A stretch of 64,000 nucleotides of DNA from an uncultured Planctomycetia bacterium. GTDB taxonomy: Bacteria; Omnitrophota; Gorgyraeia; Tantalellales; Tantalellaceae. Every line of letters starts with the position of its first letter. The stretch's first letter is position 1. The position numbers were made by a program, and so were the translations under genes. This document shows, one piece after another, positions 13,413 through 64,000 of this stretch. The stretch covers positions 118,539 through 182,538 of the forward strand of contig CAZNEE010000003.1 in the NCBI GenBank assembly GCA_964572255.1. Direction: 5' to 3'. The notes beneath the pieces are model-generated. The model was not told the origin of the DNA. It searched no databases and saw only the letters and a program-made list of their open reading frames with translations.

Positions 13413-13555
13413 AACTTATTGTTATCCCCATAACATTTATGTACTTTTTAAAGTTATTAGCTAATTCAAAGTGTAAAAGTCCCTTCATGTTTTTCTTACT
13501 TACAGAAAGACATTAAAGAGCTAACAAGCTTTTTATTTATTTAATGACTAATAAT

Positions 13556-41200: not shown

Positions 41201-44200
41201 CTTTTGCTTCCACTCCTCTACCGGTTGTACCTGTCATGCCGACAACATCATGGAATACCCTGCCGAAAAGGTTTTTAGTGTTTATTTCTGAAGATGACTT
41301 GCCTTCCGCTTTAACTATCACTTTTTTGCCTGCCGCCAATTCTTTAGCTTCAATAAGCTGCTGTATACTCGCTTTATCGGTACCGTGCAAACGTTGTCCT
41401 GTTGACTGGACACCTATCATCTTCTGTATAAGAACGGCGTCACCTCCGATAACCGTATAATCAACGCCTTCTCTGTACGCACGCGTGGCTGTAATAGCAT
41501 CCTGCATAAGCCTGACATAACTCTCCCCGCGGTGCATCCTTTCAACTATTGCTTCTTCATTATCCGCATTGTTAGTAATGAACTCTATTTCTTCCATTAT
41601 ATCTTTTCTGATAGAGCTGACCGCGTTATTTATATCGGCTTCAGTATATGGGGTATTTGATCTATTTAGCTGTTCCATCAACATGCTGCGGAAAAATCCC
41701 TTACCAAGCTGTTTCTGCATGAGCCTTAAGGCATCAAGGCGTTTCTCCCCGTAAATAGTAGCACTATTGTGGGCAACATCAACAGCGGCTATAATATCAC
41801 CCATTTTTCTTGTACCTGTTGGAGGCTTGGGTTTCTGGGCTTCTTCAACAAGTTCTGACACATCATAATCCGCTTCCACACTCGCAAGATGGGCCGCTAT
41901 GATCCTTGCCGATGATTCAACATCCATTTGGTCCCTTCCTTCAACCTGTATGAATGAGGTAAGCGCCTGATCTATCAGGATGCTATCGATCTCGTCAACT
42001 ACCAAAGACATGTTCTGCAGATCTGAAAGATCCTTACGTATCATGCGCTTATCACTCTCTATCTCTGACGTGTTAAAGTCCCTGTCGACATCAAACGCGA
42101 GTGTATCTATGGCAACAAATACAACATCCTTATCATACTCGTTACTCTTCTCGTCCTGGGATAGTTCTCTGGATATTCTACCGACACTTAAACCGGCTCT
42201 TTCGAGCACATTCTTAGTAGCCCTGTAGTTCCTCTCGGAAAGTATATCCTGCGTATCAACATAAATGGTACCTTTGCCGTCAAGAGCTTTGATGTAACAA
42301 TCCATAAGTCCAACGATAGATTTACCTTCGCCGGTCAACAGTTCCGCTATTGTCCTGGCGCCTTTCCTTGTCATCGCCGAAACTGTGGCTACCTGTTCTT
42401 TGTAAGGAATGAACACGCCTGTAGCCAGGGTAAGAAGCAGTGATGAAAGCGCGATCCTGTGCGCCCTATCAAAACCGGCAGTATCAAGTTTGTTATATTC
42501 CGCTAATTTGCCCTCAAGCTCTCTCTGGTAATATTCGATATCCGCAAGAGTTTTTGCTTCCTGCACTCTCTTCTTAAGCTCTTCTATCTGCCTTTCAAGT
42601 TTAATGACCTCCTGATGCTTGCTTGTCATCTCGTTAAGCATGCCGAAAAGCTGTTCTTTTCCTAATGATGTCGCGGCAAGGTCCACAACAGTGAGTCTTA
42701 CAAAACCATCTTTATCTTGCTTGGGTCTTCCGTACTCATACCGCCAGATCTCATTCATATCGCTTAAAAGGTCTATTGTATATCCTTCATCCAGCCTTCT
42801 TGCTATCTCAAAAGTATCGACAACATTCCTTGCCATGCCGGAAGCGCCTTTTGCTATCGTAACTACCATCTGTTTTAACAGTAATGAAGTTTTTCCTTCT
42901 TCGAGTTTCTTCATCTGTGCTTCCACTGTTTCACGGGCAGTGATTACAGAAGACCTCATGGTGGAAGCCAGAATGTTCAACGCGCCGGCAACAGTGCCTT
43001 CGGAAGTCATGGCCTCTCTTATATGGCCGGCAGCATCTTTTTCAAGCATGGTGATCAGATCATAATATTTGCCGGCAAACTCCGTCCGAAGCTCCGGCGC
43101 CAAGTCAAGTGTCGCCTTTTGTATCATATTCACAGCTTTAGCAAGACCATGTTCGCTTGTTATTACTTCAAGGAAAATATCGATCGTCCCGAATACATTC
43201 ACTATTGCTTCTCTGTTCTTCTCTATATGTGAAAGGATGTTTATGTAAAGTTCTTCTTTTCTCATTTCATTGATCGTGCTTTCGATTCTTTCGGTGGTTA
43301 TTTCGCCTCTTGCTATAGCGATCGCTAGATTCTTAGCAGCCATTGAAGAGGTCTGAGCATCATCTGACCTTAGGTCATTTAAGACGCTCGGATCTATGCC
43401 TAACTGAGTTGCCAGACTGTCGAGCACAGCTTCATAAGCAATGCCTGTGCCGGGGACGATAGTCTCGCTAAGCTTTATAATGGCGGTCTTAAGCATATCT
43501 ACCTGTCCCTTTATAGTGGCAGGCGCTGCCTCAGTGGAAACTCCCGCCGCAATGGCAAAAACTACAAGATCCTGCGATGCTTGATCAAGTTTGTTCTCGG
43601 CAATTAATCCATTTATCCTTTCTATCAAAGCGTTTTGGAAACTATCCGTCCCTATATCCTCTCTCGTACTTTCAATTAGAATATCACTTATCTCGCGGCT
43701 AAAGACACCTTGCATGAAAGTCTCCGCCACTCCGGCTCTTAATTGAAATTCTTCTACAGCCTTATCTCTTGCGCCGTCAATATTGTTCTCAAGTTTGTTT
43801 ATGTATTCACGTACAACAGGCGAATTGACCAGCCCTTCATATCTGGCAACATATTGTTTGATCTCCTCAAGATAATCACTGAACAACGCTTCTTTCTGAC
43901 TTTCTCTATATCTAGCGAAAAGATCTATAAAGTTTTCCTTATTCTGCAGGTTGTTAAGCGCTTCCTGTTTTTGAATAGCTGTAAGTTTTTCGTTTGTTAA
44001 TATCTTATTCATATTTGAAGCTATTCTTCTTGCCTTAGCGCCTGCGGTTTCTATTCCCACCCATCCAAGCACATGAGTGAAGATATTCCTGCTGATGAGC
44101 CCTTTTCTGTCGAGATTTTTGATATTTTCCAGCATCTGCTCGTGGATCTGCCCTAACTCCTCAATATCTTCAAGCTTGCTCGCCTGATTCTGGTAATCCA

Positions 44201-47200
44201 TAAGGTTCTCATATGCCGTCCACATTGCGTCCATGTTTCTCATTTTTCTGTCTATCTGCCTTAAACCTCGGCTGGTCGGAGCGTTCTTATCTGAGAACGG
44301 AGTGAATGCGGATTCTACTTCTGCCACTTCAATACCTAAGGCCGCTTTCAGGCGTCCCCGGAAAACACCAAAATTCCTGTCAACACTGTCAATGAGGTTC
44401 TCTCGCCTTCCACCTGCACCTTCAGATATGGCGCTATATATATCAGCCCTTGAAGACGTTGCCCAATGTTTAATAAAACTCCAAGCGCGTGCAAATCCTT
44501 TTTTGCCCTCACTCAGTTTAGCCGCTACTCTCACTGATACAGTGCCAGGTATGCGAGCGGTTAACCTTGATCCGAACTCATGTCCGCGAACAACTATATT
44601 GTCACCGTTCAAAAGCTCGGTTATTCCTTTGAGATACTTCACGGTAGTAGGACTCAATCCGTCCATCTTGCCCATAGCGCCTCTAAAAAGAACATCTCCG
44701 AACTTGCCGATCTCTGTACTGCGCCTTTGAGCGACATCCACCATTGCGTCATATTCTCGTTGTGTAAGCTGGAGCGCTCCGGTTCTTTCCGCATTCGCAA
44801 GACCCAACGTTTCTAATACCTCCTGGGTTCTGGCCATCTCTTCGCCTTCAAAGCTCTTAGCGTCAGACATCCTGTCACGTAAAGCTTCTGCCAATCTCTG
44901 ATCGAGAGGCACTTTAGCCAGCATCGCAGCACTTAATGCATCATCAACTGTGGCTTGCTTTACAAACTGACCGGTGATAGCGTCATGGAATCTGCCCGTA
45001 GCATCGTTATATCTATATCCGGTAAGCTCGGCTATACGTAGTTTATTGGAAAGCCTTACAACTTCGGCTGCACTTATGAAATCCCCTTTCTTCCTTGTGC
45101 CTTTCGCAAGTGCTTCGTGGTCATGCCATCTCTGTGTAGCTTCATTGAACCTTATGCCCTTACTGTCAAGTAATGCTATATTATCTTCTGTAAGCTGACT
45201 TATTCCTTCTATTTCAACAAACTCTACTGGCGCTATCTCAAGCTCCATTGTTTCGGCTCTTTCTTCGAGCTCTTTTGCTCTCCCTTCAAGAACTTTTATC
45301 TCATTCTCAAGGTCCCTTCTTTCGGCAAGCTGTGCCTCTGTTGCTCTTTCTCCCAGTTCTCTTATCCTTGCTTCAAGGGCTCTTAGATCTTTTACTTTCG
45401 CCACAGCTGTTCTTCTTGCTAGCCTCGCCTCATTTATAATATTATCAACTTCTGTTCTTATCTCCCTTGCTTGAACCGCATCAGAAACAGCCCCGATATC
45501 TTCTGTCCTGAACTCTATGCCCAGTAATTTCGCCGCGGCGCTAAGCTGACCGGCAGTGATCTGCCCGGAAATGATACTCTTGGTAAGTGTGGTAAGTATG
45601 TAATCATAACTGGCGCCTGCGGCTATACCGGTTGTCCTGTGAACTATAGCCTGCCAAAGTTCACGCGTATTATGTGCACCCACCTTATTAGTTGCGCTCT
45701 TGTAATTATTCAGTCCCTCCGTTTCTATCAAAGCTTCCATAACACGCGTATTTTCTGAAGCCATAAGAACTACAAGACCCTTCACTACTTCCATAAAACT
45801 GTCGATACTGTCAGCAGTCATGCCTGGATTAAGCGCTCTAAATACATTACTGAAGTGCGTAAATTCTTCTTTTGTATCCATCCTGCGTATAGCCAATCTC
45901 ACGCCTGCTGTCGCTTCTCTTCCTCCGATATCTCTTAAGAGATGATCGAACTGCGCCTGTGTAGTACATCCCGCAACCGCCGCGAAATTAATGACCCGGC
46001 CGGCATCTTTACCTCCTACAAGACCTTCTTCTCCTCTTGGTGTCATCAGGCATTCTACTATGTGATCAGCGACAAGACTGTCCTGCATGGCGACATTCAC
46101 AACTTCCGCGCTTACGCCCTTTGCGCTTAACGCCTCGTACATGGTCTCTATGCTTCCGGATTTAAAGATCGCGGCGTCAACGACAGTATCGACCTGGGCC
46201 GAAAATTCACTCATATTTATAACGCCCGCATGCGAAACGAAAAGATCCGCCAATGCGCCGATAGTTGCAACCCCGGCGGCACCCTGTTTGGAAAGTTTCT
46301 CAGTCCTATTTACAAGTGAATTGATCTGACCCGTGGCTATTCCAAACTTCTGGCCGATCTCTCTTATCTTTGCGGTATTCTGCCCGTCTGCTTTGAGCTG
46401 GCTTCCAATGATCATATTCTCCATCGCTCTCATGGAGGTGCAATCAAGCTCGGAGGACTGTTCCGCTACAGCTCTTCTAAAATGAGTCTTTCCTTCGGTT
46501 GTCATCGCATCAAAAGCACCGATAACTTCCGTGTTAATACCTAATTTTTCAAGGAATTGGTTGCCCTTGACACTGCCGATAAGTTCCGCTACACACGTGG
46601 CAACAAATACCCTTGAATCCATCAGGTTGGATTTGACATCAATGCCGCTGGTCAATATAGAAGCGTTAAGCATCATATTGTTCGTCATTCTGCTTATATT
46701 ATTGGAAGTTATGGCTCCGGTAGATATGCCGCTGGTTATCGAACTTGCTATTGAGGATCCCCATCCATTACTGATAAGGAAGGTATTGGCATCCGCTATG
46801 CTCATTTTGCCTGTTGCAATGCCCGTCGTTGCAAGATCGAGCGCGGCTATAGCCTCTATCCCGGAGAAATCGATCTGTCCGCTCTCTGTCATGCTTATCT
46901 CGGCAAAACGGTTATTATTAAGAAGATCCGCCATTCTGGTGCCGACATTATCTCCGCGTTTAGCGGCTTCCTGAGCGGCAGTACTTGTCTGGTTGAAGAG
47001 CTTGGTCAGCACTTTCATATTGTCGGTAGCTTTTGCTGAGGCTACGCTATTAAGTAAACTGCCGAGTTTATTCTGCTGGCCCTGGGTTAATTTTCGCACA
47101 CCATCTGTACTGGCCAAGTTGACAAGGAAAATAAGCTGCTGCGCATCTCCTTCGGATACACCGAAGTCTCTGGATACCTGCGCGGCGCTTGAACCGCTTA

Positions 47201-50200
47201 CTTGAGCATTTAATTGATTGAGGTTCTTCTGGGCAGTATTCATCCTCATGCTGTGTACAGGCATGCCGCCTGAGGCGACATCGAACATTTCAACGAAAAA
47301 TTCCGCGTATTCATCAGGCATCCACGCAAAGAGCGTTTTCCCTATGATAACTTCCTTGATGCCTTCCTCATATACGCCCTTGATCATTTTGTCCCAAATC
47401 ATGTTAACGCCTCTTCCTATGGCGCTGCCAATAGCGCGAAGGCCGCTCCAAAAGGCAACACCTGGTCCCTTGCCGAAGAGAGAACCAACTATGCCGCTTC
47501 CTATGGCTCTGCCCAAATTGGCAAGAGGTTTAAATACGGTCTTTAAAACTCCACCCAAGAAAGAGCCGAATGCGTGTATGACTACAGGCCCGGCAAAATG
47601 GAACACTCCTATAAATGCCCATCCCATAGGCGTGCTTAAATGCTGCACAAGGCCCATAAGCGGCCCGGAGGTTGTTGACATCTGAAGCAGCATGCCTTGG
47701 ATGCCTCTTAATATGCCTTCACGCTTAGCCATGATCTGCGTCATGCTGGCGTCACCAAAGAACGGTTTAAAGAGAAGCGCGCCGGCATGTAAGCCGAACT
47801 GCATGCCTATGCCCATGGTCACAAATGTTGAAGCGGCACCTGCAATAGTGAGAGAAGCCACCACTCTTGTAGCAAATGCCTGGGCACCTCTCCTGGCACC
47901 TACTCTATATATGTTAAGGAACAGTCCCCTGCCGAAGCCACCCATTCTTTTAGCTACAAACTTAAAACCCGATCTTACTGCAAAATAAACCCTCTTCGCA
48001 ATATTGCCTACGGCAAGCCGGAAACCGGCCCTAACGGCTGTTTGTTTAAGAATATTGCTTGCTATCCTTGTAGCCACGGTATTAAGTGCTCTACTTGCAG
48101 GCCCTACCAACCCGAACATGACCATCGCGTCGATGAGAACATTTGCCAGATCGTTAACCGTTATGTTGAAAATCACTTTTTGGCTAAGATATTCATTTAA
48201 CGCCTTCTCTGTCTTATATTTTTCTCCGGCAATAGCTGCCGTTAACACTAAACCAAATCCTGCTAAAGCGGCTATCCCTATACTTGCACTGCAAGTAAGA
48301 CTTAAAAAGCTTACAGTAGCGACAGTGGCAGCGCTGACACTCGCTCCTGCCGCTGCAGCAGCGCCTCCTACACCTAATAATGTCGGTATGGAAACAGCAA
48401 ACCCAACGATAAGTATAATAGCAGCTACTACATATCCGGCTTTTACCCAAAATCCGCCTTCCTGCCAATTCTTTATAAGTTGTTTAAATCCGAAATTCTC
48501 GGCAAAATATTTAGCCGCTGTGTCTGACACGCTTATAGTGGATTTATTCACAAGACCATTCTGCAGGCTTGCGTTAAAGGTCTGCGTTATAGTGCTGAAA
48601 TCGACTCTTGCTGTCCATAATCCACCGGTACCCACGTTGCCAAAGACTTGATGAACCCATGTACAGCCCCAATCACCGCTGACGTTCACATTATTCGTGC
48701 CGTCTACAGATCCTATTCGTTTACCGGTTGCGTCAACAATATTGCCCGCGGCGTCTACTGTGCCTTCAAATCCTTTAGCGCTATGGGTAAGACCCCTTTC
48801 AAGATGGCGGTGAGATATGCTTTCGAGATGCATGGCGTTGTCAAAAACAAGTGTCGTTATCTCGCCGTTCTTTGAGTCCGTAAGATTATGTCCTTCTCCC
48901 GTCACCATATCTGCCACTGTTGCTGCGGCATAACCAGTGGCTATTATTAAAAATACAGGACCGATTACAGGAATAATGCTTAAAGCTACTATGCCTACCC
49001 CTGCGGTAATTCGTCCGAAGATACCCTTCTTGTCGGCCTCAACAAGCGCATATACATACTTGATCTCACCATCTGCATTGGTCAGCTTTGCCCTTGCTTC
49101 AACCTGGCCTATATTGTCCTTATTGGGACTATGGAGCGTCATAGAACAATCATAGATCTCAACATGCGCAATCGCTGAACCCGTTGCCTTAGCCATCTCG
49201 GAAGCTTTTTTTGCAACAACCCGATCGACCTGTACTTTTTGGTCATTATTAAGATTTCCGTAAGAGATCTTCCCGCTCACAGAAAAACTTGCCTGGGAAG
49301 CATCAAATATAGCAGAGGTGCTTTTCCCTTCCTTTTCAACGGTTCTTCCCGGAGTGAACTGAACAGTAAAACTTTCAAACGCGTCCAAATTATCGCCGCA
49401 AGCCTTGGTTAGCTGTTTTATATTGCAAGCTTCTACGCCCAGGGATTCAGCCATAGCCACAACCGCCTGAGCGCCCTTCATTCCGCCTTCTGTAACCACC
49501 ATTGTGCATGTAGCTGAAAAGAGTTGCGTCGCGAGTCTATCTCCCCTCTGCATAGCTATTTTATTTAATACAACACTAACATTTACCTTAACGCCCTCTA
49601 CCGTTACATCACCCTTAACAGCTACTGTCCATTGACTCAGTCTTCGGGTATCATCTTCGCCGTCACGGGTCATGTAATCACCAACAGACACTGTTTTGCC
49701 GGAATCATAATTTTTACTTAATTCCAATGTATGGAAAGTAACCCCATCCTTTCCCACTCTCATAAAACCAAGATCAATTTCGGCGATACTATTGCCGTCT
49801 CCGTATAGAGCCATTATCTGGGAAAGTCTCTCACCTTTTATATCGAGTTTAAACTTAAGATCAGATCCTTCGATGCTGCCTATAAAATCACTTGCTCTAA
49901 GATCCGGGACTTCCGCAAGAATCTCGCCAAGGCCCGAACCTCTGAGCATATTAGTAAATTCATTTCCAGCAACTCGGCTGAAACACCAGGATTGTGCATA
50001 TTCGTCGAAACTAAGGCTATCACCGCAATTTTTTAAGCCCGAATATGCCGTCTGACCTAAACGGTCTTCTTTCCCGGTTACAACATAATACGCGTTCTTC
50101 TCTTTAAGATATATGCACGACATTTTCCTGCCGCCTGCAGCGGCTGTCACGAGATTGTCCAGCACAATGTTACAATCTTGATAATCTTCTTCTCCTAAAA

Positions 50201-53200
50201 GTTTAACCGCATAATCGATCTTGGTTATACCCAGAAGTCCTTCCAGGGCAAACTGTTCGTCAGTTGTCAGCTCATCCACTCCATCAAGTTCAGCACTGGC
50301 GGCTTTCATGATCTTGATGCTCTCTATCTTGAGATCGCCTTCCTTCTGACTGCTGGCAATAACATCTTTTATGCTGGTAAGAGTAACCCTGCCGCTCGGA
50401 AGGTATTTAGTTATACTTTCGATCTCTTCCCCTCTTCCTATTTCAGTAGCAGCGTCAAGAACCGTAAGGTCCTCGCCTTCTCCTTTTAAAGCTGTGGTAA
50501 ATATGATGGATGATTCCTGATCCTTCTGATAAAGTATCATTCTGCCCTTTAACGGTTCACCGGTTTCCTGGTCTATTTGATACACAACAGCGATGCGTCC
50601 GCCACCAGAAAGCTCTGCAGATTTACCCGGGATCTGTACGAATAGCGGTATCTGGCCTACTTTATAACCGTTTGAATCTGCCTGATAAAAAGCGCTCTTT
50701 TCTGTAATGCCGAATGCACCGAGTACCGCTTCAGCAAACTTTCCATCTCCATATGCCAGCTCTTTCTTGTTGGCAATGGATATACTTTCCTCAAGGATAT
50801 TTTCCATCTTAACCGTTTCCGTTTTGCCTTCAACTTTGGTCGTCATGGAATACTCTTCATGATGTTTACTTGAATATTCAAGCCTTAATTCAGTGAATAC
50901 TGCCTTCGCTTTGTATCCTTCGGTGAATGACCCATCTTTCTCATCAAAAAGCGCATCACATTTTGCGATCGCAAGAATGGTCGCGACAAGGCTCATCGGC
51001 CTGCCATTATCTATATTGTATTTGGCCCTTGTAGCGTTATTTGCCCGGAAAATATCCACAACATCATACCCGTTTATTTTATTTAATCTGCCGCTTATCA
51101 TCTCGCTGAAAAATTTACTGTCAACGCTCCCGTCAGCATTGAACCCTTCATCCATCGATGCCATGAGCATAAGCGTGCCGAATGTGCTTAGTTCTTCCGT
51201 ATCAAATTCACCGGTAAATTTTTCTTGCGTGAGTGAACCCGCAATGATTTTATTCATAGCCGTCTTGAATTCAGCTGCTGTCTGCGGCCCTCCTTTATCT
51301 TTATCCGCGAGAGCTTCCATCCTTGAGAGGAACTGCTTCTTGTCCCCAGAAGAAATGATCCCCATGAATATCTGAAAATTGCTGATCTCAACGACTTCTG
51401 CTTTCTCGCCCAAAGCTTCATTAACAGCATTCACGGCTCCTTGCACCTTACCGATATCATCTTTGGTAACTTTAGCGGTATCAATGCCTTTAAGGAAACC
51501 GCTCATCGCGTCTCCCTCCATTCCGGAGAGCATCATAAATACCTGGAATGTATCCGCTTCAATATTTGCGACCTTGGCACCCTGGATCACCTTGTTTACT
51601 TTTTCATCGGTAACTGTACCAAGCCTTGCATTGCTTATTGTAGTTTCGCGTAGTTCATCATCCATGCCGGCAAGGGCCATGAATATCTGGAAGCCGTTAT
51701 CCTCGAGATTCATGTCTATTCCTTTTATATTGTTGGCCCCGTTAATTACATCTTTTACATCCCTTCCGCCCACCTTATTGTTTTTCATGTTATCAAGTGT
51801 AGCCCCGCGTTTCTCCCCGTCCATTGTTGCAAGCGCCATGAATACCTGAAAAGCGCTGGTCTTTATATTCTCCTTACCGGCTTTAGCCACGACCAGATCA
51901 ACATCCTCTTTCTTAATACTGTAAGCGTTATCGACAAGATCATCACGGCCTTCTTTGCCCATGCCTGCCAACGCCATGAATACCTGGAAGTCGCCGACAT
52001 CCGTTCCCGCTCCTTTTAATCCCCAGGCAACTTTCGATACTTTCTCTTTTGTGACCTCGCCGGCTCTTATATCAGCCAGGACCTCGCCTCTCTGTTTACT
52101 GTCCATGCCGGCAAGCGCCATAAGTACCTGGAAGCCTCCGGGTGTTTTGACCCCGGCATCCGTAGCCTTACCGATCACATCATTTACGTCTTTCGCGGTA
52201 ATAAGCCCCTTCGTTATATCGTTCAACGCGCCTTCGCGCTGTTCATCACCCATGCCTGCAAGCGCCATAAAGATCCCAAAACCGTCCTTTTCAAAAGTCA
52301 TGTCAAGTTTCAGCTCTTCCCCGGCAAACTTGATCACATCGCCGATGTCCTTACTGGTTATCTTTGCGCCTAAAGCGCTGGAAAGTATATTACCCCTCGA
52401 TTCATCTCCCATGCCGGCGAGAGCCATGAATACCTGGAAGCCGTTATCTTCAAGATTCATGTCTATCTTCGCGCCTTTAGCGCCATTGATCACGGCCTTT
52501 ACCGCATCCGCAGAGCTTATTCTCTTGCCGTTTACAATAGTATCTTTACCCATGCCGGCCAAAGTCTCTGTCCTTGTTTTGTCATCCATACCTGCAAGCG
52601 AGAGAAATACCTGAAATCTGTCAGCTTTTACATTAGCTCCCTCGGCTTTGGCCATAGCAAAATCGACATTATCCTTTGTTACCTTGCCGTCTCTGGTGTT
52701 AGCCCATGTAAGGCTTCTTGTATCATCATCCATGCCGGCGATAGCCATAAGCGTCTGAAACTCATTTATTTCCACTTCCGCTCCCGCGGCCGCCTTTATA
52801 ACCGAATCATATACATACCCCACCCTTGAAGAGAAAATATTATCAATGACTTTCGTGCGCGTTTCATCATTCATGCCTGCAAGCGCCATGAATACCTGAA
52901 ATTCACCGACTTCAATATTTCTCATTTTAGCTTCGAACATCACAGTATCTATTTGTTCTCCCTTTACTTTTGCCGCGCCTGCTAATACTTGAGCTCTTCC
53001 TTTATCATCCATGCCCGCAAGCGCCATGAATGCCTGGAAACCTCCCACTTCCATGCCTATCTCTTTAGCAGCATCGACAATCTTAGAGATATCTCCTTCA
53101 AATACCTTCCCGGCTTTGATATTGCCTATCATAGTGGCTCTGGCACCGGCATCCATGCCGGCCAACGCCATGAATACCCCGAAGCCATTAACTTCAACCT

Positions 53201-56200
53201 TGGCTTTCTCGGCGCCTTTCAGCACGTCATTTACCATATCGGTCTTAACTTCGCCTCGATTAATACTATTAAGAATTTTGCTTCTTGCAGTATCATCCAT
53301 GCCCACAAGCGCCATGAAGATTCCGAACCCGTTCGCTTCCATATTCATATCAAGACCGGCTTTATTGGCACCGTTTATCACCTGGTTTATCTGCACATCG
53401 GTCACCTTGCCGGATTCTATGACACTTAACATGTCGGAACGCGCTTCCGCACTCATACCGGAAAGCGCCATGAATACCTGGAAGTCGCCAACCGTTACAC
53501 CGACCTTTTCTGCCCCGCTTATAACAGTACTTATATTTTCTTTAGTTATGCCCAATTGCCCGGTATCTGCCTTAAAAACGAAATCGAACCTTGCCTTTTC
53601 ATCCATACCTGCAAGCGCCATGAATACTCCGAAATCATCAGCAATCACTCCGACTTTAGCTGCAGCCCCTTGAATCATCTCGACATAAATGCCCATTTTT
53701 GAAGTGCCTCTTCCGATCACCTCGCCGTCTATCACTATATCCTTCGCGGGTTCTAACTTGCTGATCTTACTCAAAAGATCTCCCCTGGCTTTGTCATCCA
53801 TGCCTATTATTGCCGTAAATGCTTGGAACCCGCTGATATCCAGTTTTGCGTCGCTGGTTCCCTTGAGTATGACCCCGATATCCGCCGCGGTTACCTTGCC
53901 GGCCTTAACATTGGCCAAAGTACCCGCGCGATCTTTATCGCTCATGTTGGAGAGCCATGAAACGATCTGTATATCCGAAACACCTTCACCGGTAATTCCT
54001 TCAACGCTGTCTCTTATGGGACTGATGAACTCGCTTCCTACCACGCCGAGGTTTCCGCTGTAGAATTTGCCTTCATTTTCTCCCTTACCTATTAATACGG
54101 TTCTGGGATTATAAAGCGCATCCAGCCCCCCCATGAAAGTCCAAACAGCATTGCCCGCACTGTCGGTAAGCACTGTGGAATCCACTGCGCCTGCCTGATT
54201 GGCCAGCGTTTTAGCTAATGCCGTCTCTTCAGCGCTTAGATCATCTGCATAAGTAACTTTGGCCTGGCTTACTATCGCCCTGAAAGTGTCGCCCATGTGA
54301 TCCACTGTGGTTACCTGTCTATCAAACCCGAAATTGACCAGGTGCTTGCCTTCGCCTTCTCCGCTGTAAATATCATTGGATGCGATATCATGGATCCCTC
54401 CTGCGGGAAGTTCGCTGAATCTTGCTCTTCCGCCTACAAAATGCACAACACCTGACTGTACATTCATCTTCTTCAGCCATCCCTCAACCATCGCTTTGTC
54501 ATTGCCAAGCAAACCTTTCAGGTCTATATTGGTTTCCCGCATCAAAGTCTGCACATTAAATCCGTTGAGGGTGAGTTTGCCCATCTTATTGTTATTTATT
54601 TCAAATGCGAACTTTTTGTCTCCCACATTTAGCTCAATGGATTGCGTCGTCAAAACCTGACCTAAAGAGCTGATGCCCCAGATCTTTGTCGTGGATTTCC
54701 CGACCACTTGCCCATCTATCTTTATGTCTTGCGGAGGCGTTTCTATTGCTGCACCACCAGCCAGTTTAAGGCTTCTTCCGCCGTCCTGGACGGTGAGTTT
54801 ATATTCTGTGCCTTTGACATTAATGGCAAATTGCTGTTTTCCGCCCAATAGATTTTCTTCGGTAAAGAGGACTTCTCCGTTCACCACATTTATAGTCACA
54901 TTTATAGTCACACTTTCACCGGGAATATGACCGGGAAGTATAACTTTTATTGACGCTATTGCCGGGCCGGAATCTGTAAATACCGGAGTCGTCCTTCCGC
55001 CTTCAATACCCGAAAGGTTCTTAAAGACTACGGCGCGTCCCGTGACAGCATGACGCACTTTTGTTCCGTCCGGGAAGATCGGCGTGCCTGCTTCATCAAA
55101 ATCTACCGTCACACTATCCTGATCGACTATATAACCTCCCGCTCCAGTTCCTCTCATGAAAGTAATATTATTTCCAGTTAGTACCAGGCTGTTCCCTATG
55201 AACCAGGCATGCCCGTTTTCTCCGATAGTAACGCCGTAAAATCCGCCCGCGGCCAAGCTGACTGTCAAATTCTGGGAAAGTTTTCCTCTTGGCAGTCCTG
55301 CACCCGCAGCGCCCTCCCCGGACATATTTATTGCCTGATCGGATGGGGTATGTAACAGATCTCTATCTGAAGCTGTGATCCTTCCAATAGCCGAGCTCAT
55401 TCCATATTCATCTATTTGTATGCCCCAGATCTCCGCATCAACATTCGCAATGCCCCCGCCGGCCGCGTCAAAAGTGGTTCTGGTCTTATAAGCCGCTCTA
55501 TCCGCCACAAGCTGTGTTACATTCCCTGAAACTGTGAATTTCATGCCGTTAATAGTAACGATCGAGCCGTCTCTTAATTCATCGCCCATCTGGTCCTTAA
55601 GGCTCTTAAATACAGAGTAAAGCAGTGCTCCGGATATTGCTTCATCAAAGGTGAGCGATATATCAACAACGTCTTTTACCGCGAAACTCTCGATCTCGCC
55701 TCTTAAAGCCGTAACTGCCGCCTGGAGTGCGCTCACTTCAGCTTCCGGCATCCTCTCCACGACGCCGCCGATTAACTCCCAATCATCAAAAGCAGCTGCC
55801 AGTTCCGTAGCCGCTTCTGATACATATTTACCTTGCGCACTGTACTCAGAAATTCTGGCCGAAAACTTCGCTGCTATTTCACCAAACTCTTTATTGATGC
55901 CGATAAAAGTTTTCTGTCCGAGTTCTGTCTTGGCAAGAGCATCCATGCCGAACAGCTCAACCATATTACTCATGAAATCCAGCCTGTATTGGTCTCGGTC
56001 AAATCCGGAAATACGCTCACCGGTTTTTGCGTCAAATGTTGCCACTTGATCACCTTCGGGTTCAAAATAAGAACTTAAGAAAGCTGTTTCTATGACATTA
56101 ATGCCTTGTAATTTTTCCGATTCAAATTGAAGGCTATTAGCCTTTGCGAAATTAGCCTCAAGGTTCTGCCCGAAAGCCAAAACGGCAACGCCTATCATCT

Positions 56201-59200
56201 GCAATGCATCCGGCTGGTCTTTGAACGCATTCATGAACCCGGTTTTCTTACCGATTGACGATGAGACCAGGCCGAGCCATCCGCCCAGCATCCTGAACTT
56301 GCCGTCATCATTGAAACCGCCGACCGAGATCAAATTAAGGAATGAATCGATGAACTTGCTGTCCGCCATTATGATCTCGAGTGCGTTCCTTGCGGTAATA
56401 TTCTTAAAATCTATGTTCTTGCCGACATATTCGTAGCTGGTCTTTATCTCCAGCATGGTGAACTCATTAAGGCCAGCAGCGCCGGCTTTATTAAGCAATT
56501 TGATATGCGCGCCTGAGAGAGCCGCGAATACATCGCCTGCCCCTTTAAGGCCTCTTAAATTATCAGATAGATACATCATGGAGCCCGCGATCATTGTCGC
56601 CATATCTCCGACTTTAAACTCACCTATGTGGCCTTTGAGTTTACCAAAATCCATGTCCATCAATGCTTCGACCGCGCCTACATATTTCAGCGCCACCATC
56701 CTTGTCATCACACCTTTGGCAATAGCCAAACTGAGGCCCGCTTCGGTCTTTTGCACGGCATTCTGGAAACTCGACTCTATCATCGCCAAAAGTCCACTGG
56801 ATATCTCTTCGCCGTTGGATAAGCCGGCTAAAATGGAATTGTTTACGCTTACAAGATTGGAATTAAGACCTCGCTGCGTATCGAAATAACCTTCGAGAAC
56901 TGAAGCGAATTGATCTTTTGTAAGGCCGCTCTTTCCTGCAATCTGCAGGATATTCCAGTTATTCGCCATGAGATTGTCCATCGTAGATATAGCCTTTTCA
57001 GCAACCTTACCGGTAAAAGAATTATTATTCTTTGCCTGCAGGATAGACTGTACTACATTGTTCCCGGCATTCTTTATAATGCCTTGTGCGGTTTTGATCA
57101 ATGCGACATTCCTGGGATCAGCCCTGACAATGTCTTCGGCAACGTCACCGATCTGATTATATATACCCAAAGCTAATTCGGTATTGCCTTCAGTTGCGTT
57201 CAACGCCTGAGCGAATAACGCCTGTGATAAATATTTGCCGAGCGCGTCCGCTCTTTCCGCGCCGGTCATCTCAATAGTCCCGCCTAATAGAGCCTGAACA
57301 TCTCTTTCTGTAGACAGCAATGCATTTGTGATTAATGTTGCGACCCAGCCGCCAAGAGCATCGACCTGCTGACCAAACCACTGTGCTGCCTGTGTAGAAA
57401 CCATTTCTAACCCTTTTTCTATAAGACCGGCAAACTTCATCCCCCATTCACCAAGGTTTCTCAGAAACATCGCGGCCTTGACTTCCGTAGGCGCCGCCTT
57501 TAATCTCAATTCTGTCCTGTATTGCTCGATCGTCTGGCCCGTTCTTGCAAGATGTTCTTCAACTCTGCGCTCTGCTATCGCTTCCATGATCTTCGGAGCT
57601 GAAAGTATAGTGGCAAACGCGCCGGCAAACTTGCCTGACCATATATCAAGCATTCTCTGGAAAGCTGTCTTCTCGGAAGATTCCTTATATGCCGCTTCGT
57701 GCCACTCTTCATCCTCGCCAAGTGAAAAATCGGCAAACAGTTCATACATCCGTTTAGTAATATACCTTTCCAAGCCCACTTTTGCGGCGGCAGTAAGAAG
57801 CATCAGAAACGGCGTTGCCGCTTTAGGTGCCATCGCAGCCATTTCAGGCCGATCGGGTTCACTTAATAATTGTCTCGTCTGGTCCGCCTGTGTTACAAAT
57901 GTGGTTACAAATGTGCCCCATACCAGGCTCCAAACGGCTATCTGCTCGTCATTCAAGCCCCAATCTTCGCCAAGGGTGGAGATTATTGACGTACCGATCT
58001 TGCTTAATGCATAAGCTGTTGCCCCGACTGTGAATTGTGTCGTGCCATATACCCCGAAATACTGACCTCCGGCAGATTGTATTGCTTGCCCTCCGGAACT
58101 TGCCAGAAGTTTATCTGTTGCAGTTTCAGGTGGCTTCGGGGAGTCTCCTAGCGCAGTCTCCAAAGCCGAAAGTATTGACTGGAACCCCAGACTGAAGGCG
58201 ACCATGCCTAACGCCTCATAGAAATCCTGTGCGCTTATTCCCAGGAATCCTTCTCTATCACTCATATCCTCGGCTTCACGTAAGAGCCACCTGCCGAGAG
58301 ATATGAAGGCAAGCCCTACTATGACCCTGAAAAGAACTTTTGCTGTTGTTGAAGTTATGGTGAAAAATTTCTCGATCGCCGCTAACTTGTCGGTGAACCA
58401 GCCGCCGATCCAGGAGAGGAGTATAGAGTTAAGTATTCCCTGGTACCACAATCTGAAGGCGGTGGCGTGGTCCATGCCGAACCAGGCGGTATTTATCTCC
58501 ATCCTTACAAGCTCGACTGCGGCGGTCACCATGGCTGTCGCCCAAAGGGCTGCCAGAGCTGTTGTCGCGGCACCCGCAGTATATATAACAAGTACTACTT
58601 CTATGACTGTAAGAAGTATCTGGATGAACTGCATGAAGCCTTTTCCGGTCACCCATTCCTTCTCCCAGAGGGTCTTGATGTCTTTCCTTAAGAGCACGCC
58701 CGTTATGCCGTAGAAGAAGAACTCTCTTTCCAGGCTCTTGGATTTGGCCGTCATCTTCCGGCTTACTCTCTGCTTGGAATATGTATATACGGTCTGGCTT
58801 AATGTATCGCCGAAGGCGTTGTATTCAATGTCTGACAATACCCGCAAAGTCTTGATCTTGTCGCCAAGCGCCTTGGTAGGATTCTGGCTAATATACGAAT
58901 ATATTGAACCAAACAAACCATAAGTACTCTCCGCCAGCCCGGCATAATATTCTGCAAGTTCCGAAAGGTTGCTATATCCCCTGTTTTCCCATTTATCCAC
59001 TTTTTCATAAGTAATGCTGTATGTGGTGTACCCTTTTACGCGGCCGAACATGTCATATTGATAATCATAGGCCCATGTTATCTGACCCCATTCATCGATG
59101 GTCGTTTGTTTTTCAAGCCTTCCGAACTCATCGTACTTGCTGTATTCAATTTCGACCGTTTCTTCGGTATCGGTCTCGACTTTGCCGCTTTCCTTGACGG

Positions 59201-62200
59201 TTTCCTCTTTTGTTATGGTGGTCGTTTCCCTGATAATAGCATTACCGAAGGCATCATAAAGAATGGTCTTCGTCCTGATGGTCTCTGTTATGAACTTGAT
59301 CTCGCCGTCATCGCCTCTTTCGATGCGGGTGGATGTTATGAGGCTTTCGATCGGTCGGTTATTCTGGTCATACGCGACAACCTGGGCGATCTCTATCTCT
59401 GACGTCACGGAATCGCCTATCGTATATGAGAACCAGCTTACGGGGTTATTGCTCTCATCATATAATGTGCTCTTCTGGACAGTGGTATTTGTGCTCCTTC
59501 TGGCAAGCGGGATCTTTACATTCCCGATCTCCATGCCCAGAGGATCAAAGCCTACATCCCTTGAAACTTCTACAAAATCCTGTTTATTGCCGTTCGTATC
59601 ATAAACAATGTCCGAAACCTTGGCAATGGAAGTAAGCCCCGTTATTCCCGCCAGCTCTTCTTCCCCGGCCCACTGCTCCGTCCAAAGCATGTCTTCGCTC
59701 ATATCCGTGTAGCTCTTGATATTGCCGCTCTTATCATCGTATACAGTGCTCAACCTTTCGGTGTAAGAGCCCGTTAAGTACCTGTCATCCTCCGGTATCT
59801 GGGCTTTTACAAGATCCGGAAGATCTTCTATATTAGAAGGGGTCACGGTTATATCTTTGTTCACGGTGATGTTAGTCTGCTTATAACCTATATTGTGATC
59901 GGATGAATCATATGCCATGTCCTCCATTATAAGGACATCTTTTGTGGGCACCCATTCATAATAATAAGACGAGCTGCTGCCTTCCGCGGATTTGATGCGT
60001 CTGATATATTCACTATGAGGTCCATCGGGACCACCATAAAATACCAGGTCACCCTGCTGTTGATATCCCTGAACTCTTGACATGACATCGTAAGAGACAT
60101 TAATGCGTTCTTCCTGAGCATAGCGGATCATTTCATTGTTCGCATCAATACCGGGCAGGTTCTCGGGATAATCATCATCTCCAAAATCCAGCCCGATCCA
60201 TCCGTCCTCATGCCTCACAGTGGTATGAGCATCCGCCCACTGGGATTCCTTCTCATCTTTAGTGTAAGTTTCCCACCCTGTCATCCTTCCAAATTCGTCA
60301 AACACAACATCTCTTTGTATGTATGTCTCCTGCCGCCAGGTCGGATATTCAACCAGCCACTCGCTGCCTCCATGCAGGTTAACGGCATTGTCATTTAAAT
60401 GATGTTCATTTACCGCATTGCTATAGGTAAGCGGTCCGATCGTATCTTCGGCCCAGAAAAGAAGCGCAGGCTGAAATCCATCAGTAACAGGATCAATATC
60501 AGCGATGAATTTGTTTTCGTAGAAATGTCCGAACTTGGTCGTGATCTTCCGGAAACTGGCCCACTCATTAAGAGAATCGTATTCTATATCGCTGTGGTTA
60601 GGTGTGATGCCAAGAATACCGCCAACCGTAGTAACAGTTATGAAATCATCATACCGCTCGACCCGATCCCTGGTCGGACTGTACCTTTCAAGATCTTTTG
60701 TCTCCGTAACGGTGTAGCCAGCAAGCCTGCCAAGATCGTCTACCCTGCCGTCCTGTTCGCTGGTCACTGTAACGTATTCACGATCATTGCCCGTAAGCAT
60801 CATATCCATAAGGCCGATAGTTGTGACAAAGTTCCCGTTTTTATAGCTGTATGAAGACATGTCCACCATCTGGCCGAGGCTGTCGTACACCAAGCCTTCC
60901 AGTCTAGTGTATTCTTCATTGAGTATACCGGTAATGATCGCCATCCTAAGGCCGATATCAAATCCCGGCAGTGTTATATCATCGGAGCTTCCCTGACGCG
61001 TTAATGTGCCGTTTGTCATTAAATTACCGAAGGAATCGTAAGAGGCCATGCGTGAATATTGTGTTTGCAAGTCAGTTAATGGTGCAATAATATCAATATC
61101 GTCAAGCGGAGGAGGAAGGGGCAAAGTGATAATATAAGTTAAATTTTCCTTCTTTGTTACGTCTGTTCTTAAAGCCCGGCCTGAAGGTGCGATAACATTT
61201 GTCTGTTGTAAATATGTACCTCCATAATTCATCGGCACGCCTTGTGAATCTTGACGGGAATGATCTGAATCTATTCCCCTCTTCCACTGATCTAAAGTAA
61301 CAGTTTTAAATCCGCTGTCATTTTCAATTACACTATAAAACTGTACATCAATAACGCTGGCATCCCATATCCCATTATATAAATGGGTGCCGTAAGCATA
61401 AGCGCCGGACTCAAACCATTGTTTTAAACGCTCCAGCTCGGCATCATCGGTCAGATCATATTCTGTAAGAAGATAATAATCTAACGGCCTGTTTGTCTCC
61501 ATTTGGAAGATCTTCTGGCCGTTTTCGTCATAAACAATATAGCTGCTGTAATTTTCGCCCCTTACCGGAATATCCACTATGACCAAGGTCTTTGTAGGAT
61601 CAGCTTGCGCGCCGGACCATTTTTGTATATTTGCAAGGGAAGACAAATTAACGCTTCCGTCAAAGTTAGTTTCACACACTCCTGTAACAATATCAGTTGT
61701 ATCGCTGACCTCAACATTGTAATTAACGTAGCCGGAGTTCTCCGTAAGTGTATTTGTCGTGCTTTCCCAGTTTCTTTGGGCCGTGCCCGCAAGAGCGGTA
61801 TCCACCAGCTGGCTTGCTATTTCGGCATTGGTAAATACCCCTGAACTTGCAATGATCACGGGGTCGCCTGTACGAAGGTCGGTAAGCTCCCCCCTGGCGC
61901 CGGTCTGCCTTATCGATATGGAACGGACATCGCCGAAAGAGTCGATGCGCTGGAGCATCATGGCAGATCGATCATCGTAGCCTATATGCGAAAGACTTAT
62001 CTCCTTATCATAAAAATATTCATCTGTCGTATTGGCCTGATCCGTGAATACATCGTGCAGGACCCCGTCACCGGAAGAGTTCTGATAAACGATGCCGCCT
62101 TTATTATTAACCGTTACAGGATTCCAGATGTTCCCCGAGGGTTCAAAAGTCTTATCGGCATATACCACATGTGATGTCTCTCCATTAGGAAGTTCAATAG

Positions 62201-64000
62201 CCTTGGTAAGTCTTAATCGAACATCACCGCCGGTTCCGGCAAGAATATATGCGCTGTACTCCTGGCCAAAAAGATTTATTACACCGAAATTATCAGGGTC
62301 ATAATCATAGTTCCATCCCCATGTTCCGCCGTAGCCAAAGGGATCCGGCCAAAATACATTTACCCCGTAATACACTGCATTACTGAAATCGACCGTTACA
62401 ACTTCTGTTCCGTAAGTGAACACCCATCTTGGGTAATCGTTGCTGCCGTAAGTCTGAAAATCGACCTGATACGTGCTTGGAAAGAATCCAAAAATACTGT
62501 CTTCATCATAAAACGTATGCAGTTGAAGTCTTTCATAATCATCGGGGTAATCAGAGATATACTCGATCTCGCCGGTTATTATGTCATTATCGCTTGAATC
62601 TTTTACTCCTATGACATTTCCGTCATCATCGAAATCAAATTCATAACCTTGCGCGGAAAATTCAACCAGTTTCGCGAATTCAAGCTCGATGTTATGGGCG
62701 TTCTCAAGTATCACGACATCGCCCGTACTGTTTTCGGTAATTATGGGGTCGGTATTAAATGTTATTGATCTGCCTGTCCCCCAATCTACCTCTATTTCAA
62801 CAGAGGAGGTATAAAAATTATCATCCTCGTATGTATTGCGTTCAAGGATCCTTGCATCGTGCCTTATCCCGCCTCCGCCTCCCGCAACTACAAAATTACT
62901 TCCGGTAGCAGGCCTGTCCACCTGATAACGAAGCATATCGGGACCGTTGCCTTTAAAATCTTCTCCCGGATCCGAATCATCGTTGAAGTTATAATACATT
63001 CTTAAGTCCTCTTCGCCGAAATCAACGCCATTCTCAAATTCATCCTCAGCCCTGCCTCCCGGGATAAAACCGGAGTCGCTGGTATAGAAAGCAACCTCGC
63101 CTAAAATACCTTCAAACGCCTGACCGCCTTCAAATCCGCCGCCCACGCTATCCTGGTCCTGTCCGAATACAAGCGTACCGCCGTTATTGATCAAAGCCCC
63201 TGTTTTAAATCTGCCTCCGTATTCCTTTATACCATCCACGTAAACTTCCAGATTATCCCAATCCGGAACCGTAGTGTTCCACCACCTTACCATTACGTGG
63301 TGCCATTGGCCGTCATTGACATCCACGCCCGTATCTCTTGAATCATTATCAATATGGATCCTCAAGTTATTACTATTATAGATCAGAAATTCATTGGTAT
63401 GGCCCGGTACAGCATAAGAGATTATGCCGTCACTACTGTCAGTGGTCTTGATCCAGAACGAACAGTCTAAGTTCCTTATGCCATTTTCTCCAGGCGTCGG
63501 CGGGGATGAATCGAAGAAGCAATCAACTGAACCGTCTGAAATAGCATAGCTGTCCACAGTCCCGTTAAACCCGAATCCTTTTTCAGGTACGCGCGCTCCT
63601 CCCCATGTCACCAAGGTAGGATAGCCATACTTTGTCAGCAGATAATGGCCCTGAAGAGCGGGATTATCTCCTTGATATTCCCTGCCGGCGGAATACGGAT
63701 CCCATCTCCAGGTGTTCAGGTAGTCGGTAAACTCTTTAAAAGTCGCGTTAGCTTCCTCGGGACCTGAAACATAGAAAACATAGTCCTGGCCTGAAAGCTC
63801 GTCAGTGATCGTGTATCTGAAATTACCTTTATATTTACCGCTTGTTATATTCTTTATCTTGGCGGTCGCCAGTGAAGTGCCGTCATTGGCGATGAACTCA
63901 TAAGGCACTCCCGTCATCCTGTCCAAGTCAGTATTAGTAGATGTAGGATAGATGATGCGGTTACCGTGCACATCATATAGTGTGGTTAAAAAAGCGCCTG
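35262..64000 (-). CDS. Giant protein of at least 9569 aa with a probably partial 5' end. Order of parts: pentraxin/LamG-like lectin domain, YD/RHS-like repeats, TM region, beta-rich adhesin-like region, ~18 tandem 50-aa repeats, hydrophobic Gly/Ala-rich blocks, coiled coils, embedded SecA-like ATPase, C-terminal TM region.
   Basis: ORF track gives 9569 aa from a GTG at 63971-63969. I translated 63972-64000 on the minus strand (..[18 protein letters not shown]..) and found no stop. The frame is therefore open to the window edge, and the real start is probably beyond 64000. The TAA stop is at 35262-35264. Confidence 0.85.
   Translation of the reverse strand, partial: [9578 protein letters not shown]
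40300..42660 (-). other. SecA-like preprotein-translocase ATPase module (NBD1, PPXD-like insert, NBD2, helical scaffold) embedded in the >=9569-aa ORF.
   Basis: Motif-level matches to canonical SecA. Walker A is ELLTGEGKS (coding at ~42325-42340), against [29 protein letters not shown] matches ITYGTNNEYGFDYLRDN. Walker B is [19 protein letters not shown], against [59 protein letters not shown] matches [45 protein letters not shown] matches [18 protein letters not shown] matches [40 protein letters not shown] (coding at ~40660-40720) matches [28 protein letters not shown]. Confidence 0.75.
47200..48700 (-). other. Gly/Ala-rich hydrophobic multi-helix block of the >=9569-aa ORF.
   Basis: The translation reads [71 protein letters not shown] and [30 protein letters not shown] and [26 protein letters not shown]. 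The antisense ORF 48004-48651 is A/V/L-rich as expected. Confidence 0.5.
51100..53930 (-). repeat. Coding tandem repeat array: about 18 imperfect units of ~48-52 aa (DNA period ~150 bp), consensus [43 protein letters not shown].
   Basis: The plus strand shows a recurring core, catgccggcaagcgccatgaatacctggaa, at ~51500, 51661, 51830, 51960, 52130, 52250, 52420, 52590, 52730, 52875, 53010, 53150, 53300, 53455, 53610 and 53800. In the protein, [45 protein letters not shown] and so on continue to [13 protein letters not shown]. Antisense plus-strand ORFs at 51379-54063 show the mirror repeat MPASAMNTWKP. Confidence 0.85.
58300..58720 (-). other. First TM cluster of the >=9569-aa ORF, immediately after the YD-repeat region.
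   Basis: The translation reads [44 protein letters not shown], then [14 protein letters not shown], then [19 protein letters not shown]. Confidence 0.55.
58800..62600 (-). other. YD/RHS-like repeat region, a putative beta-shell.
   Basis: Many YDxxG(N/R) repeats fall between residues ~450 and 1720: [72 protein letters not shown]. A DPLGM motif ([13 protein letters not shown]) also occurs mid-region. Confidence 0.5.
63070..63620 (-). other. Pentraxin / Laminin-G (ConA-like lectin) domain at the N-terminus of the >=9569-aa ORF.
   Basis: Residues ~120-300 read [127 protein letters not shown]. The GQDQDSxGGGF..F.G.lgEV core matches the pentraxin/LamG_3 signature; human CRP and SAP have LGQEQDSFGGNF..SFVGEIGD. 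The GQWHHV residues are coded at 63311-63294. Confidence 0.55.

Follow-up and report, generated by a model that had tools for sequence, protein, structure and literature searches.

The locus described here raises the question of what kind of repeat occupies a long stretch of a giant bacterial protein, whether it is old or recent, and what it might do there. The DNA, a stretch of 64,000 nucleotides referred to as the window, comes from an uncultured bacterium deposited as Planctomycetia and placed by GTDB in the Omnitrophota (Gorgyraeia; Tantalellales; Tantalellaceae), and corresponds to positions 118,539 to 182,538 of the forward strand of contig CAZNEE010000003.1 (assembly GCA_964572255.1). 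An earlier note, made from the letters alone, had drawn attention to about 18 tandem coding repeats at 51100-53930, and this proved essentially right: 18 tandem units are encoded on the minus strand at 51231..53978, corresponding to residues 3341-4256 of the product of a giant open reading frame (ORF), denoted here as ORF A, whose residues are counted from window base 63998. From the evidence presented below, the array represents a new repeat family, predicted to be alpha-helical, and we consider it rather probable that its units stack into a rigid solenoid that acts as a spacer or scaffold within the giant protein.

The repeat unit and its array

A motif scan of ORF A detected 17 cores of the F-[QG]-x-F-M-A-L-A-G-M type, with a spacing of 46-65 aa, and a hidden Markov model (HMM) built from the corresponding units recovered all of them together with one degenerate N-terminal unit (DIQIVSWLSNMSDKDR / SDIQIVSWLSNMSDKDR), thus giving the total of 18. 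This degenerate unit, u00, aligns in register with the other units, as well as with the unit that opens the array of an orthologue. The length of the units ranges from 46 to 65 aa (mode 48), and their consensus reads xFQVFMALAGMDDxxRxxxLxxIxxGKVTxxDVxxVIxGAxxAGVxV. The repeat pattern is real and not the product of chance. The back-translated core pattern was found 7 times in the window vs 0 in 100 dinucleotide-preserving shuffles, a gapped two-unit pattern was found 5 times in the window and never in the shuffles, and the window-derived HMM matched 19 stretches in an independent public protein (P0001, E 2.7e-140), which constitutes non-circular evidence. Regarding composition, the array is acidic (pI 4.9), contains more Met than the whole protein (5.7% vs 3.0%), and is Cys-free and nearly Pro-free. 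When the unit HMM was applied to the two neighbouring giant ORFs (B and C, described below), no further copies of the repeat were detected.

Age of the array and soundness of the assembly

Several lines of evidence bear on the origin of the array. Tandem Repeats Finder, run on the array DNA down to a score of 30, reported no tandem repeat, and the mean DNA identity between units is 48% (maximum 61%), with adjacent units no closer to each other than distant ones, so the former description of the units as diverging at the DNA level can be maintained. At the protein level, the identity between units averages 34% (range 15-52%), and identical residues are encoded by the same codon in only 44% of cases. 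Unit identity within the array (33%) is barely above that shared with the units from other species (27-30%), and the most divergent units are the terminal ones, namely u00, u01, u16 and u17. These values point to an ancient array, kept by selection at the protein level, rather than to a recent expansion. The existence of higher-order super-repeats or of a recent block duplication was also considered, and was ruled out by an analysis of identity by offset, which revealed no higher-order period, despite the presence of one stretch of 66 nt with 89% identity (51654-51719 vs 52401-52466), the longest similar DNA stretch in the array.

The same data are pertinent to the notion that the array might be an assembly artefact, that is, that it was collapsed, expanded or chimeric, and that its copy number, or even the ORF, was not real. 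Fragmented assemblies are known for giant repetitive genes and, in fact, a related public metagenome-assembled genome (MAG) carries a 100-N scaffold gap and a change of frame inside its array. However, with units this dissimilar at the DNA level, a longest similar stretch of only 66 nt and no period, reads would map uniquely; in addition, the frame remains open through all 18 units, and over 28.7 kb overall, and the orthologue has a comparable array. We therefore regard an artefact as extremely improbable. Because of the low DNA identity and the lack of a higher-order period, there is almost no substrate for recombination or for the mis-assembly of reads. The warning in the earlier note that such arrays are hotspots for recombination, copy-number variation and collapse thus does not apply here, although it holds loosely at the level of the family, in which the number and length of the units vary.

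Two side observations can be made on the DNA of this region. The GC skew is negative across the whole window and is strongest at 52001-54000 (-0.28 vs ~-0.15 elsewhere), coinciding with the array, presumably due to the Gly/Ala/Asp/Lys-rich codons of the repeat on the coding strand. Furthermore, plus-strand ORFs of 124-220 aa run antisense to the array (51955-52614, 53011-53673 and others over 50.9-54.1 kb). They bear a pseudo-repeat, MPA(S/N)AMNTWKP, that mirrors FQVFMALAGM, and are shadow ORFs.

Predicted structure of the unit and its conservation

Two models of consecutive units were predicted with AlphaFold2 (AF2), as had been proposed earlier, and in both cases confident three-helix units were obtained. 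For the first one, spanning u04-u07 (189 aa), the input alignment (10 rows) was built in register from four-unit blocks that do not overlap, taken from the window as well as from three relatives, and the model displayed a mean predicted local distance difference test score (pLDDT) of 89.0 and a predicted template modelling score (pTM) of 0.79. The second one, covering u08-u15 (404 aa, 4 alignment rows), showed the same helix pattern, with a pLDDT of 84.5, a pTM of 0.70 and no segment below pLDDT 50. In each unit, a first helix (H1) of 8-9 residues, formed by FQVFMALAG, is followed by a second one (H2) of ~12 residues starting from D-D-x-x-R, and by a third (H3) of ~13 residues after the (G)KVT turn. 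H1 extends to 13 residues in a few units, and the presence of an insertion of the 'MNLEDN' type in the tail of u09, u10 and u14 is accompanied in the eight-unit model by a longer first helix in the next unit. Because pTM is high over four and over eight units, the packing between units would be fixed, rather than resembling beads on a string, and the array can be pictured as a continuous rod-like alpha-solenoid. The models thus fit the earlier suggestion of a solenoid or rod-like spacer, the overall shape and the function being in both cases inferred. A Kyte-Doolittle scan of residues 3341-4256 found no segment with transmembrane hydrophobicity.

The conservation of each position was evaluated on 48 units from five proteins. 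The most prominent feature is H1, with F2 at 89%, Q3 at 83%, F5 at 85%, M6 at 77%, A7 at 83%, L8 at 89%, A9 at 79%, G10 at 69% and M11 at 81%, and it is followed by an Arg, R16, conserved at 90%. The core that the earlier note had qualified as strict is thus real, whereas the GKVT turn, which the note had placed after it, is missing from about half of the units. H2 (positions 19, 20 and 23) and H3 (33, 36, 37 and 40) contain conserved hydrophobic residues with i, i+3/4, i+7 spacing, and V28 and an alternating phi-x-phi-x-phi linker (43, 45 and 47) are also conserved, while the remaining positions are highly variable, with an entropy of ~3 bits. Residues D12/D13 and T29 fall at the places expected for helix N-caps, and both H2 and H3 are amphipathic. 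H1 is hydrophobic on all sides and is probably buried. As judged from the aligned residues, the pattern appears to be that of a structural repeat, with no conserved polar surface or per-unit ligand site evident.

The individual units, all of them on the minus strand, were delimited with the HMM, and those from u04 to u15 are also covered by the AF2 models. The array begins with the degenerate u00 (SDIQIVSWLSNMSDKDR, 49 aa, 53832..53978) and continues with u01 (65 aa, 53637..53831), which has an insertion between H2 and H3, u02 (50 aa, 53487..53636) and u03 (52 aa, 53331..53486). The four-unit model starts at u04 (48 aa, 53187..53330) and includes u05 (48 aa, 53043..53186), u06 (46 aa, 52905..53042) and u07 (47 aa, 52764..52904). 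The eight-unit model starts at u08 (48 aa, 52620..52763), and goes on with u09 (59 aa, 52443..52619), the insertion of which is modelled as a small beta hairpin, u10 (53 aa, 52284..52442), u11 (49 aa, 52137..52283), u12 (48 aa, 51993..52136), u13 (46 aa, 51855..51992), u14 (53 aa, 51696..51854) and u15 (48 aa, 51552..51695). The array ends with the divergent u16 (57 aa, 51381..51551) and u17 (NFQIFMGIISSGDKK, 50 aa, 51231..51380), the latter being the C-terminal unit. Immediately after it, two variant units were tentatively recognized by eye on the same strand at 50799..51230 (STFGTLMLMASMDEGFNADGS and MSLVATILAIAKCDALFDEKDGS), in a region where the unit HMM gave no significant match. These variant units (ORF A residues ~4257-4400; LMLMASMDEGFNADGSVDSKFF, ATILAIAKCDALFDEKDGSF) are kept in P0001 and appear ~4 times in another relative, P0002. 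They may represent capping units or a second type of repeat.

Comparison with known repeat families

The claim that the repeat is novel, and not one of the standard types, was examined at the level of both sequence and structure, and the profile search intended to assign the units to a known family yielded none. When the array was scanned against Pfam with hmmscan at E<=10, scattered noise was all that came out, with no Arm, HEAT, TPR, Sel1, GA, FIVAR, PG_binding, EF-hand, dockerin or mTERF model, and NCBIfam gave nothing for the ORF A half in which the array is located. In a profile search of all PDB sequences the best match had E 0.23, and an albumin-binding protein of the GA type (2n35) appeared with E=1. 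Neither of the two models produced a Foldseek match below E 0.1, the four-unit model being compared with PDB and BFVD and the eight-unit model with PDB. For the former, the best PDB match was the designed repeat DHR5 (E 0.71), with template modelling (TM) scores <=0.21 on the query and 0.28 on short targets, and the best BFVD match had E 0.33; for the latter, the best matches were the designed repeat RPB_PLP1 (E 0.13) and mTERF4 (E 0.62), with TM <=0.24. The repeat is therefore a previously undescribed family.

A parallel in layout, and in layout only, is provided by the ARM repeats, which are also tandem units of ~42-48 aa composed of one short and two longer helices that build a solenoid scaffold, as predicted here. 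However, no Pfam ARM model was matched at E<=10, the consensus is unrelated, Foldseek revealed no likeness to the ARM structures in PDB, and the model could not be superposed on the superhelix of solved ARM proteins. The HEAT, TPR and Sel1 repeats are alpha-solenoid scaffolds as well, the first two being often found in the giant proteins of Omnitrophota, but all three have two antiparallel helices per 34-47 aa, in contrast with three per 48 aa in our case, and gave no profile match. The mTERF repeats and the designed DHR and RPB repeats, which supplied the top Foldseek matches, form solenoids of two or three short helices per unit, yet these matches were not significant (E 0.13-0.7, TM 0.08-0.2, root-mean-square deviation 13-24 A), and mTERF units measure ~30 aa. 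Another parallel is offered by Ebh, a giant surface protein from S. aureus that is anchored to the membrane and forms a long rod with tandem FIVAR-GA three-helix modules. In this case the resemblance consists of many small tandem three-helix modules within a membrane-anchored giant bacterial protein, while there is no sequence likeness, as judged from Pfam and PDB profiles only, and both the organism and the type of envelope are different. Finally, the unit differs from EF-hand and dockerin repeats in that its consensus lacks a 12-residue Ca-binding loop of the DxDxDG type, and no Pfam match was found.

The repeat could still be a known helical repeat (ARM, HEAT, mTERF, PUF or similar) that has diverged so much that it was missed by both the sequence and the Foldseek searches. 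We consider this unlikely, given that the Pfam output did not include any ARM, HEAT, TPR or mTERF model even at the permissive threshold used, and that many ARM and HEAT structures are deposited in PDB, yet none was retrieved at E<0.1 or TM>0.21 with models of 189 or 404 aa. In addition, an H1 that is fully hydrophobic and near-invariant is not a feature of ARM or HEAT repeats.

Relatives and distribution

When the unit HMM, with which the earlier note had recommended searching metagenomes, was applied to public proteins, about five relatives were found. Specifically, 1.84 billion representative proteins were searched exhaustively with the profile, and of the seven matches obtained at E<=1e-3 five are credible, each of them being a single-member cluster. 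The three named relatives among these five are fragments of giant proteins, all annotated as Omnitrophota (Candidatus Omnitrophota or Ca. Aadella gelida). P0001, a 2,076-aa fragment from the Omnitrophota MAG GCA_050053675.1, contains 19 matching stretches, of which 17 are clear units, mostly of 54 aa, and it aligns colinearly to ORF A over residues 2715-4534 (~1,800 aa, ~30% identity), as corresponds to an orthologue. P0002, a 1,872-aa fragment from Omnitrophota, has 5-6 units of 55 aa, followed by variant units and by a transmembrane cluster, and P0003, a 3,878-aa fragment from Ca. Aadella gelida, presents two units at its truncated N-terminus, and then a transmembrane cluster and a SecA domain. 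P0004 (5,152 aa, GCA_964430735.1) carries at least eight divergent units and shares with ORF A the array alone, and P0006, a short read-derived fragment of 154 aa, displays three partial matches corresponding to the H1-H2 portion. Consequently, the number and length of units differ among relatives, from 18 of ~48 aa in our protein to at least 17 of 54 aa and 5-6 of 55 aa.

The locus encoding P0004 (contig CAYSFB010000005.1) is the one with the scaffold gap mentioned above, which comprises 100 N at 9871-9970, inside the array, and across which the frame changes. The gene continues upstream for at least 3,361 codons, and hence the deposited 5,152-aa protein is the C-terminal part of a product that measures at least ~8,500 aa. 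Over this upstream part, the gene caller placed opposite-strand genes that are shadow ORFs.

The other two matches, both restricted to the H2-H3 half of the unit, were discarded as non-homologous. One of them, P0005, is a 'triple tyrosine motif' protein from Bacillus, and the other, P0007 (E 6e-4), is the read-derived sequence SRR6201999_2262489, made of ten identical 57-aa repeats that contain GTTIANVKAGKADMDAVNLAQLKAAGLNVDT. These repeats recall trimeric-autotransporter neck motifs, and their likeness to the unit profile is probably convergent. At the DNA level, the core pattern had no match in 185,579 representative genomes, and its lone matches in two JGI metagenome contigs (L001 and L002) are attributed to chance, as the unit HMM gave E 0.04 for the first and no match for the second. 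The gapped two-unit pattern hit 62 loci in genome contigs, nearly all corresponding to one unrelated enterobacterial gene, and only the match in the Aadella gelida contig was real. Word-indexed protein searches, using either the whole array or the 48-unit alignment, returned no match, a result that is uninformative because they missed the relatives found by the exhaustive search. The family is therefore real and rare and, as far as the sequences in these collections indicate, so far confined to giant proteins of the Omnitrophota type.

The giant protein that hosts the array

The whole window is occupied by three consecutive giant minus-strand ORFs, the outer two of which run off its edges. ORF A (35265..63998; >9,578 aa) comprises 9,578 stop-free codons, with its stop at 35262-35264, and is open at the right edge, its 5' end being missing. 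ORF B (13817..34858; 7,013 aa) gave no Pfam match at E<=0.001, and ORF C (3..13415; >4,471 aa), which runs off the left edge, includes PEP-utilizers_C, NAGPA (phosphodiester glycosidase) and SprT-like domains.

Within ORF A, the Pfam search identified a Pentaxin / LamG (concanavalin-like lectin) domain at residues ~173-306 (63081..63482) and a divergent SecA motor domain (SecA_DEAD + P-loop_SecA) at residues ~7126-7744 (40767..42623), and nothing else; in particular, there was no dockerin and none of the enzyme set of Archaeovorins. The SecA domain matched PF07517 with E 4e-33 and PF21090 with E 9e-15, while the NCBIfam SecA models were matched far below their cut-offs, and a search with this region returned canonical SecA proteins only, at 25-32% identity. 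A crude Kyte-Doolittle scan, which leaves the number of helices per cluster ambiguous, outlined three hydrophobic, putatively transmembrane clusters at residues ~1786-1906 (58281..58643), ~4992-5397 (47808..49025) and ~8651-9032 (36903..38048), the number of helices being uncertain for the first two. The array lies between clusters 1 and 2, and is preceded by a region (residues 2715-3340, 53979..55856) that is beta-rich by eye and in which the alignment with P0001 (~30%) starts. To place the array on one side of the membrane, hydrophobicity, flanking charges and the distribution of Cys were examined, and they were not decisive, the helix counts being too uncertain. With respect to the latter, no Cys is found over 3,570 residues of ORF A (776-4346, window ~50961-61673), the array included, and 9 of its 20 cysteines are concentrated at residues 4347-4951, just before cluster 2.

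At the N-terminal side, inspection by eye and with a regular expression revealed eight YD-x-x-G-[NRQ] motifs within residues 1-1660 (window ~59019-63998), one of them at the window edge. These motifs suggest an RHS/YD-like beta-helical region, even though Pfam at E<=0.01 detected no RHS_repeat in ORF A, and this region may correspond to the 'antiparallel beta-helix tubule' that has been reported in the giant proteins of Omnitrophota.

Giant proteins of this phylum have been reported to combine many transmembrane regions with a SecA DEAD domain of divergent sequence (West-Roberts et al. 2023, bioRxiv 10.1101/2023.11.21.568195; Nielsen & Lui 2026, bioRxiv 10.64898/2026.06.07.730766), and helical repeats such as HEAT are among the domains most often found in them (West-Roberts et al. 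2023). With its LamG/pentaxin domain, three transmembrane clusters and SecA domain, ORF A shows the hallmarks known for these proteins. It resembles the SecA-domain giant proteins of Omnitrophota (the 'PF07517 group' of Nielsen & Lui 2026) in its size of >9.5 kaa, the transmembrane clusters, the divergent SecA_DEAD/P-loop domain and the location within a row of giant genes. Helical repeat arrays are a common component of these proteins, and the named relatives of the array are Omnitrophota MAG proteins. The repeat, in contrast, is present in only a handful of them, and term searches of both studies found no mention of it. ORF A differs from the dockerin-type giant proteins in lacking, as judged by Pfam, dockerin/TSP3 repeats, and from the Archaeovorins in that their glycosyltransferase, methyltransferase, NUDIX and similar enzyme domains were not detected.

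Possible roles of the array

All these observations can be integrated into a model in which the most likely role of the array is that of a spacer or scaffold. Each ~48-aa unit would fold as three short helices, with H1 corresponding to FQVFMALAG, H2 starting from D-D-x-x-R and H3 from the (G)KVT-x-x-D turn, and an extended phi-x-phi-x-phi linker would follow H3. The 18 units would stack into one continuous and rigid alpha-solenoid, in which a hydrophobic spine made of the H1 helices lies buried, and the outer surface, variable and acidic, is contributed by H2 and H3. The array would determine how far apart, and in which orientation, adjoining parts of the giant protein lie, in this case two membrane-embedded parts, and would possibly serve also as a docking surface for partners. 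The model receives support from the divergence of the terminal units, as in capped solenoids, and from the fact that the top Foldseek matches, although non-significant, are designed helical repeats and mTERF4, which belong to the solenoid class. A length-setting module also fits because the number and length of the units vary among relatives. Several points weigh against it. The shape as a rod rather than a superhelix, the rise per unit and the buried position of H1 are inferred; the alignments supplied to AF2 had little depth (10 and 4 rows) and consisted mostly of paralogous units; and AF2 can be over-confident on idealised helical repeats. Moreover, the conservation of H1, Q3 and R16 at the level of identity exceeds what generic core packing needs, and a recognition motif could be involved.

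A different explanation would be a multivalent array, in which every unit acts as a small binding module of three helices, similar to the GA, protein-A or peptidoglycan-binding domains. Roles in attachment and cell-wall processing have been proposed for the giant proteins of Omnitrophota (West-Roberts et al. 2023), and the LamG/pentaxin lectin domain in the same ORF and the conservation of the polar Q3 and R16 at 83-90% would be in line with binding. However, the unit is variable outside the core and cap positions, which implies that there is no conserved binding face, and the searches described above detected no GA, FIVAR, PG_binding or similar domain in Pfam at E<=10, the only GA-type match in PDB having E=1. 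The high pTM across units, too, suggests one rigid body instead of independent modules. We therefore regard a binding array as rather unlikely.

The near-invariance of H1 also led us to consider that this segment might be an iterated recognition or insertion element, either as a signal-like sequence for an in-cis SecA-like motor or as an interfacial or re-entrant membrane helix, in which case the array would work as a track for translocation or membrane association, and not as a passive scaffold. Indeed, H1 is kept at the identity level in all relatives, the array has so far been found only in giant proteins of the type that has SecA-like domains and transmembrane clusters, and it has been proposed that the SecA domain of the Omnitrophota giant proteins may serve for the export of the very protein that carries it (West-Roberts et al. 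2023; Nielsen & Lui 2026). However, signal peptides differ from H1, which measures only 8-9 residues (13 in some units) and has acidic residues after it. A transmembrane or re-entrant helix needs ~19 or more residues, and no segment of the array reaches transmembrane hydrophobicity on the Kyte-Doolittle scale. Furthermore, AF2 places H1 within a folded, soluble repeat with high confidence. We consider an element of this kind very improbable, and a rigid solenoid that acts as spacer or scaffold remains our preferred explanation for the array.

Significance of the repeat family

The repeat belongs to the helical tandem-repeat scaffolds of giant bacterial proteins and, by itself, does not imply a new mechanism. 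A more far-reaching proposal, to which we give a low probability and which is kept because the identity-level conservation of H1, Q3 and R16 is striking, is that H1 (FQVFMALAGM, with an Arg five residues on) constitutes an iterated functional element. It could form a track of recognition sites, gripped step by step by the protein's own SecA-like motor or by a dedicated secretion system during export of a loop of several thousand residues, or else a continuous spine or groove of hydrophobic nature, along which lipids or other hydrophobic cargo would pass between host and episymbiont. If true, such a track or conduit would represent a new mechanism on a new fold in giant proteins of unknown function.

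Since the giant proteins of Omnitrophota are mostly unannotated 'dark matter', an HMM of 48 positions that annotates ~900 residues in this protein, and comparable stretches in its few known relatives, is of use, and the repeat is a marker for one sub-lineage of the SecA-domain giant proteins. As a compact and regular module, it is also an attractive structural target, which could be expressed and solved. Finally, the differences in copy number (from 5 to 18 or more) and in unit length (48 vs 54 aa) among relatives provide a handle on the question whether this module fixes a physical distance in the envelope of these ultra-small episymbionts.

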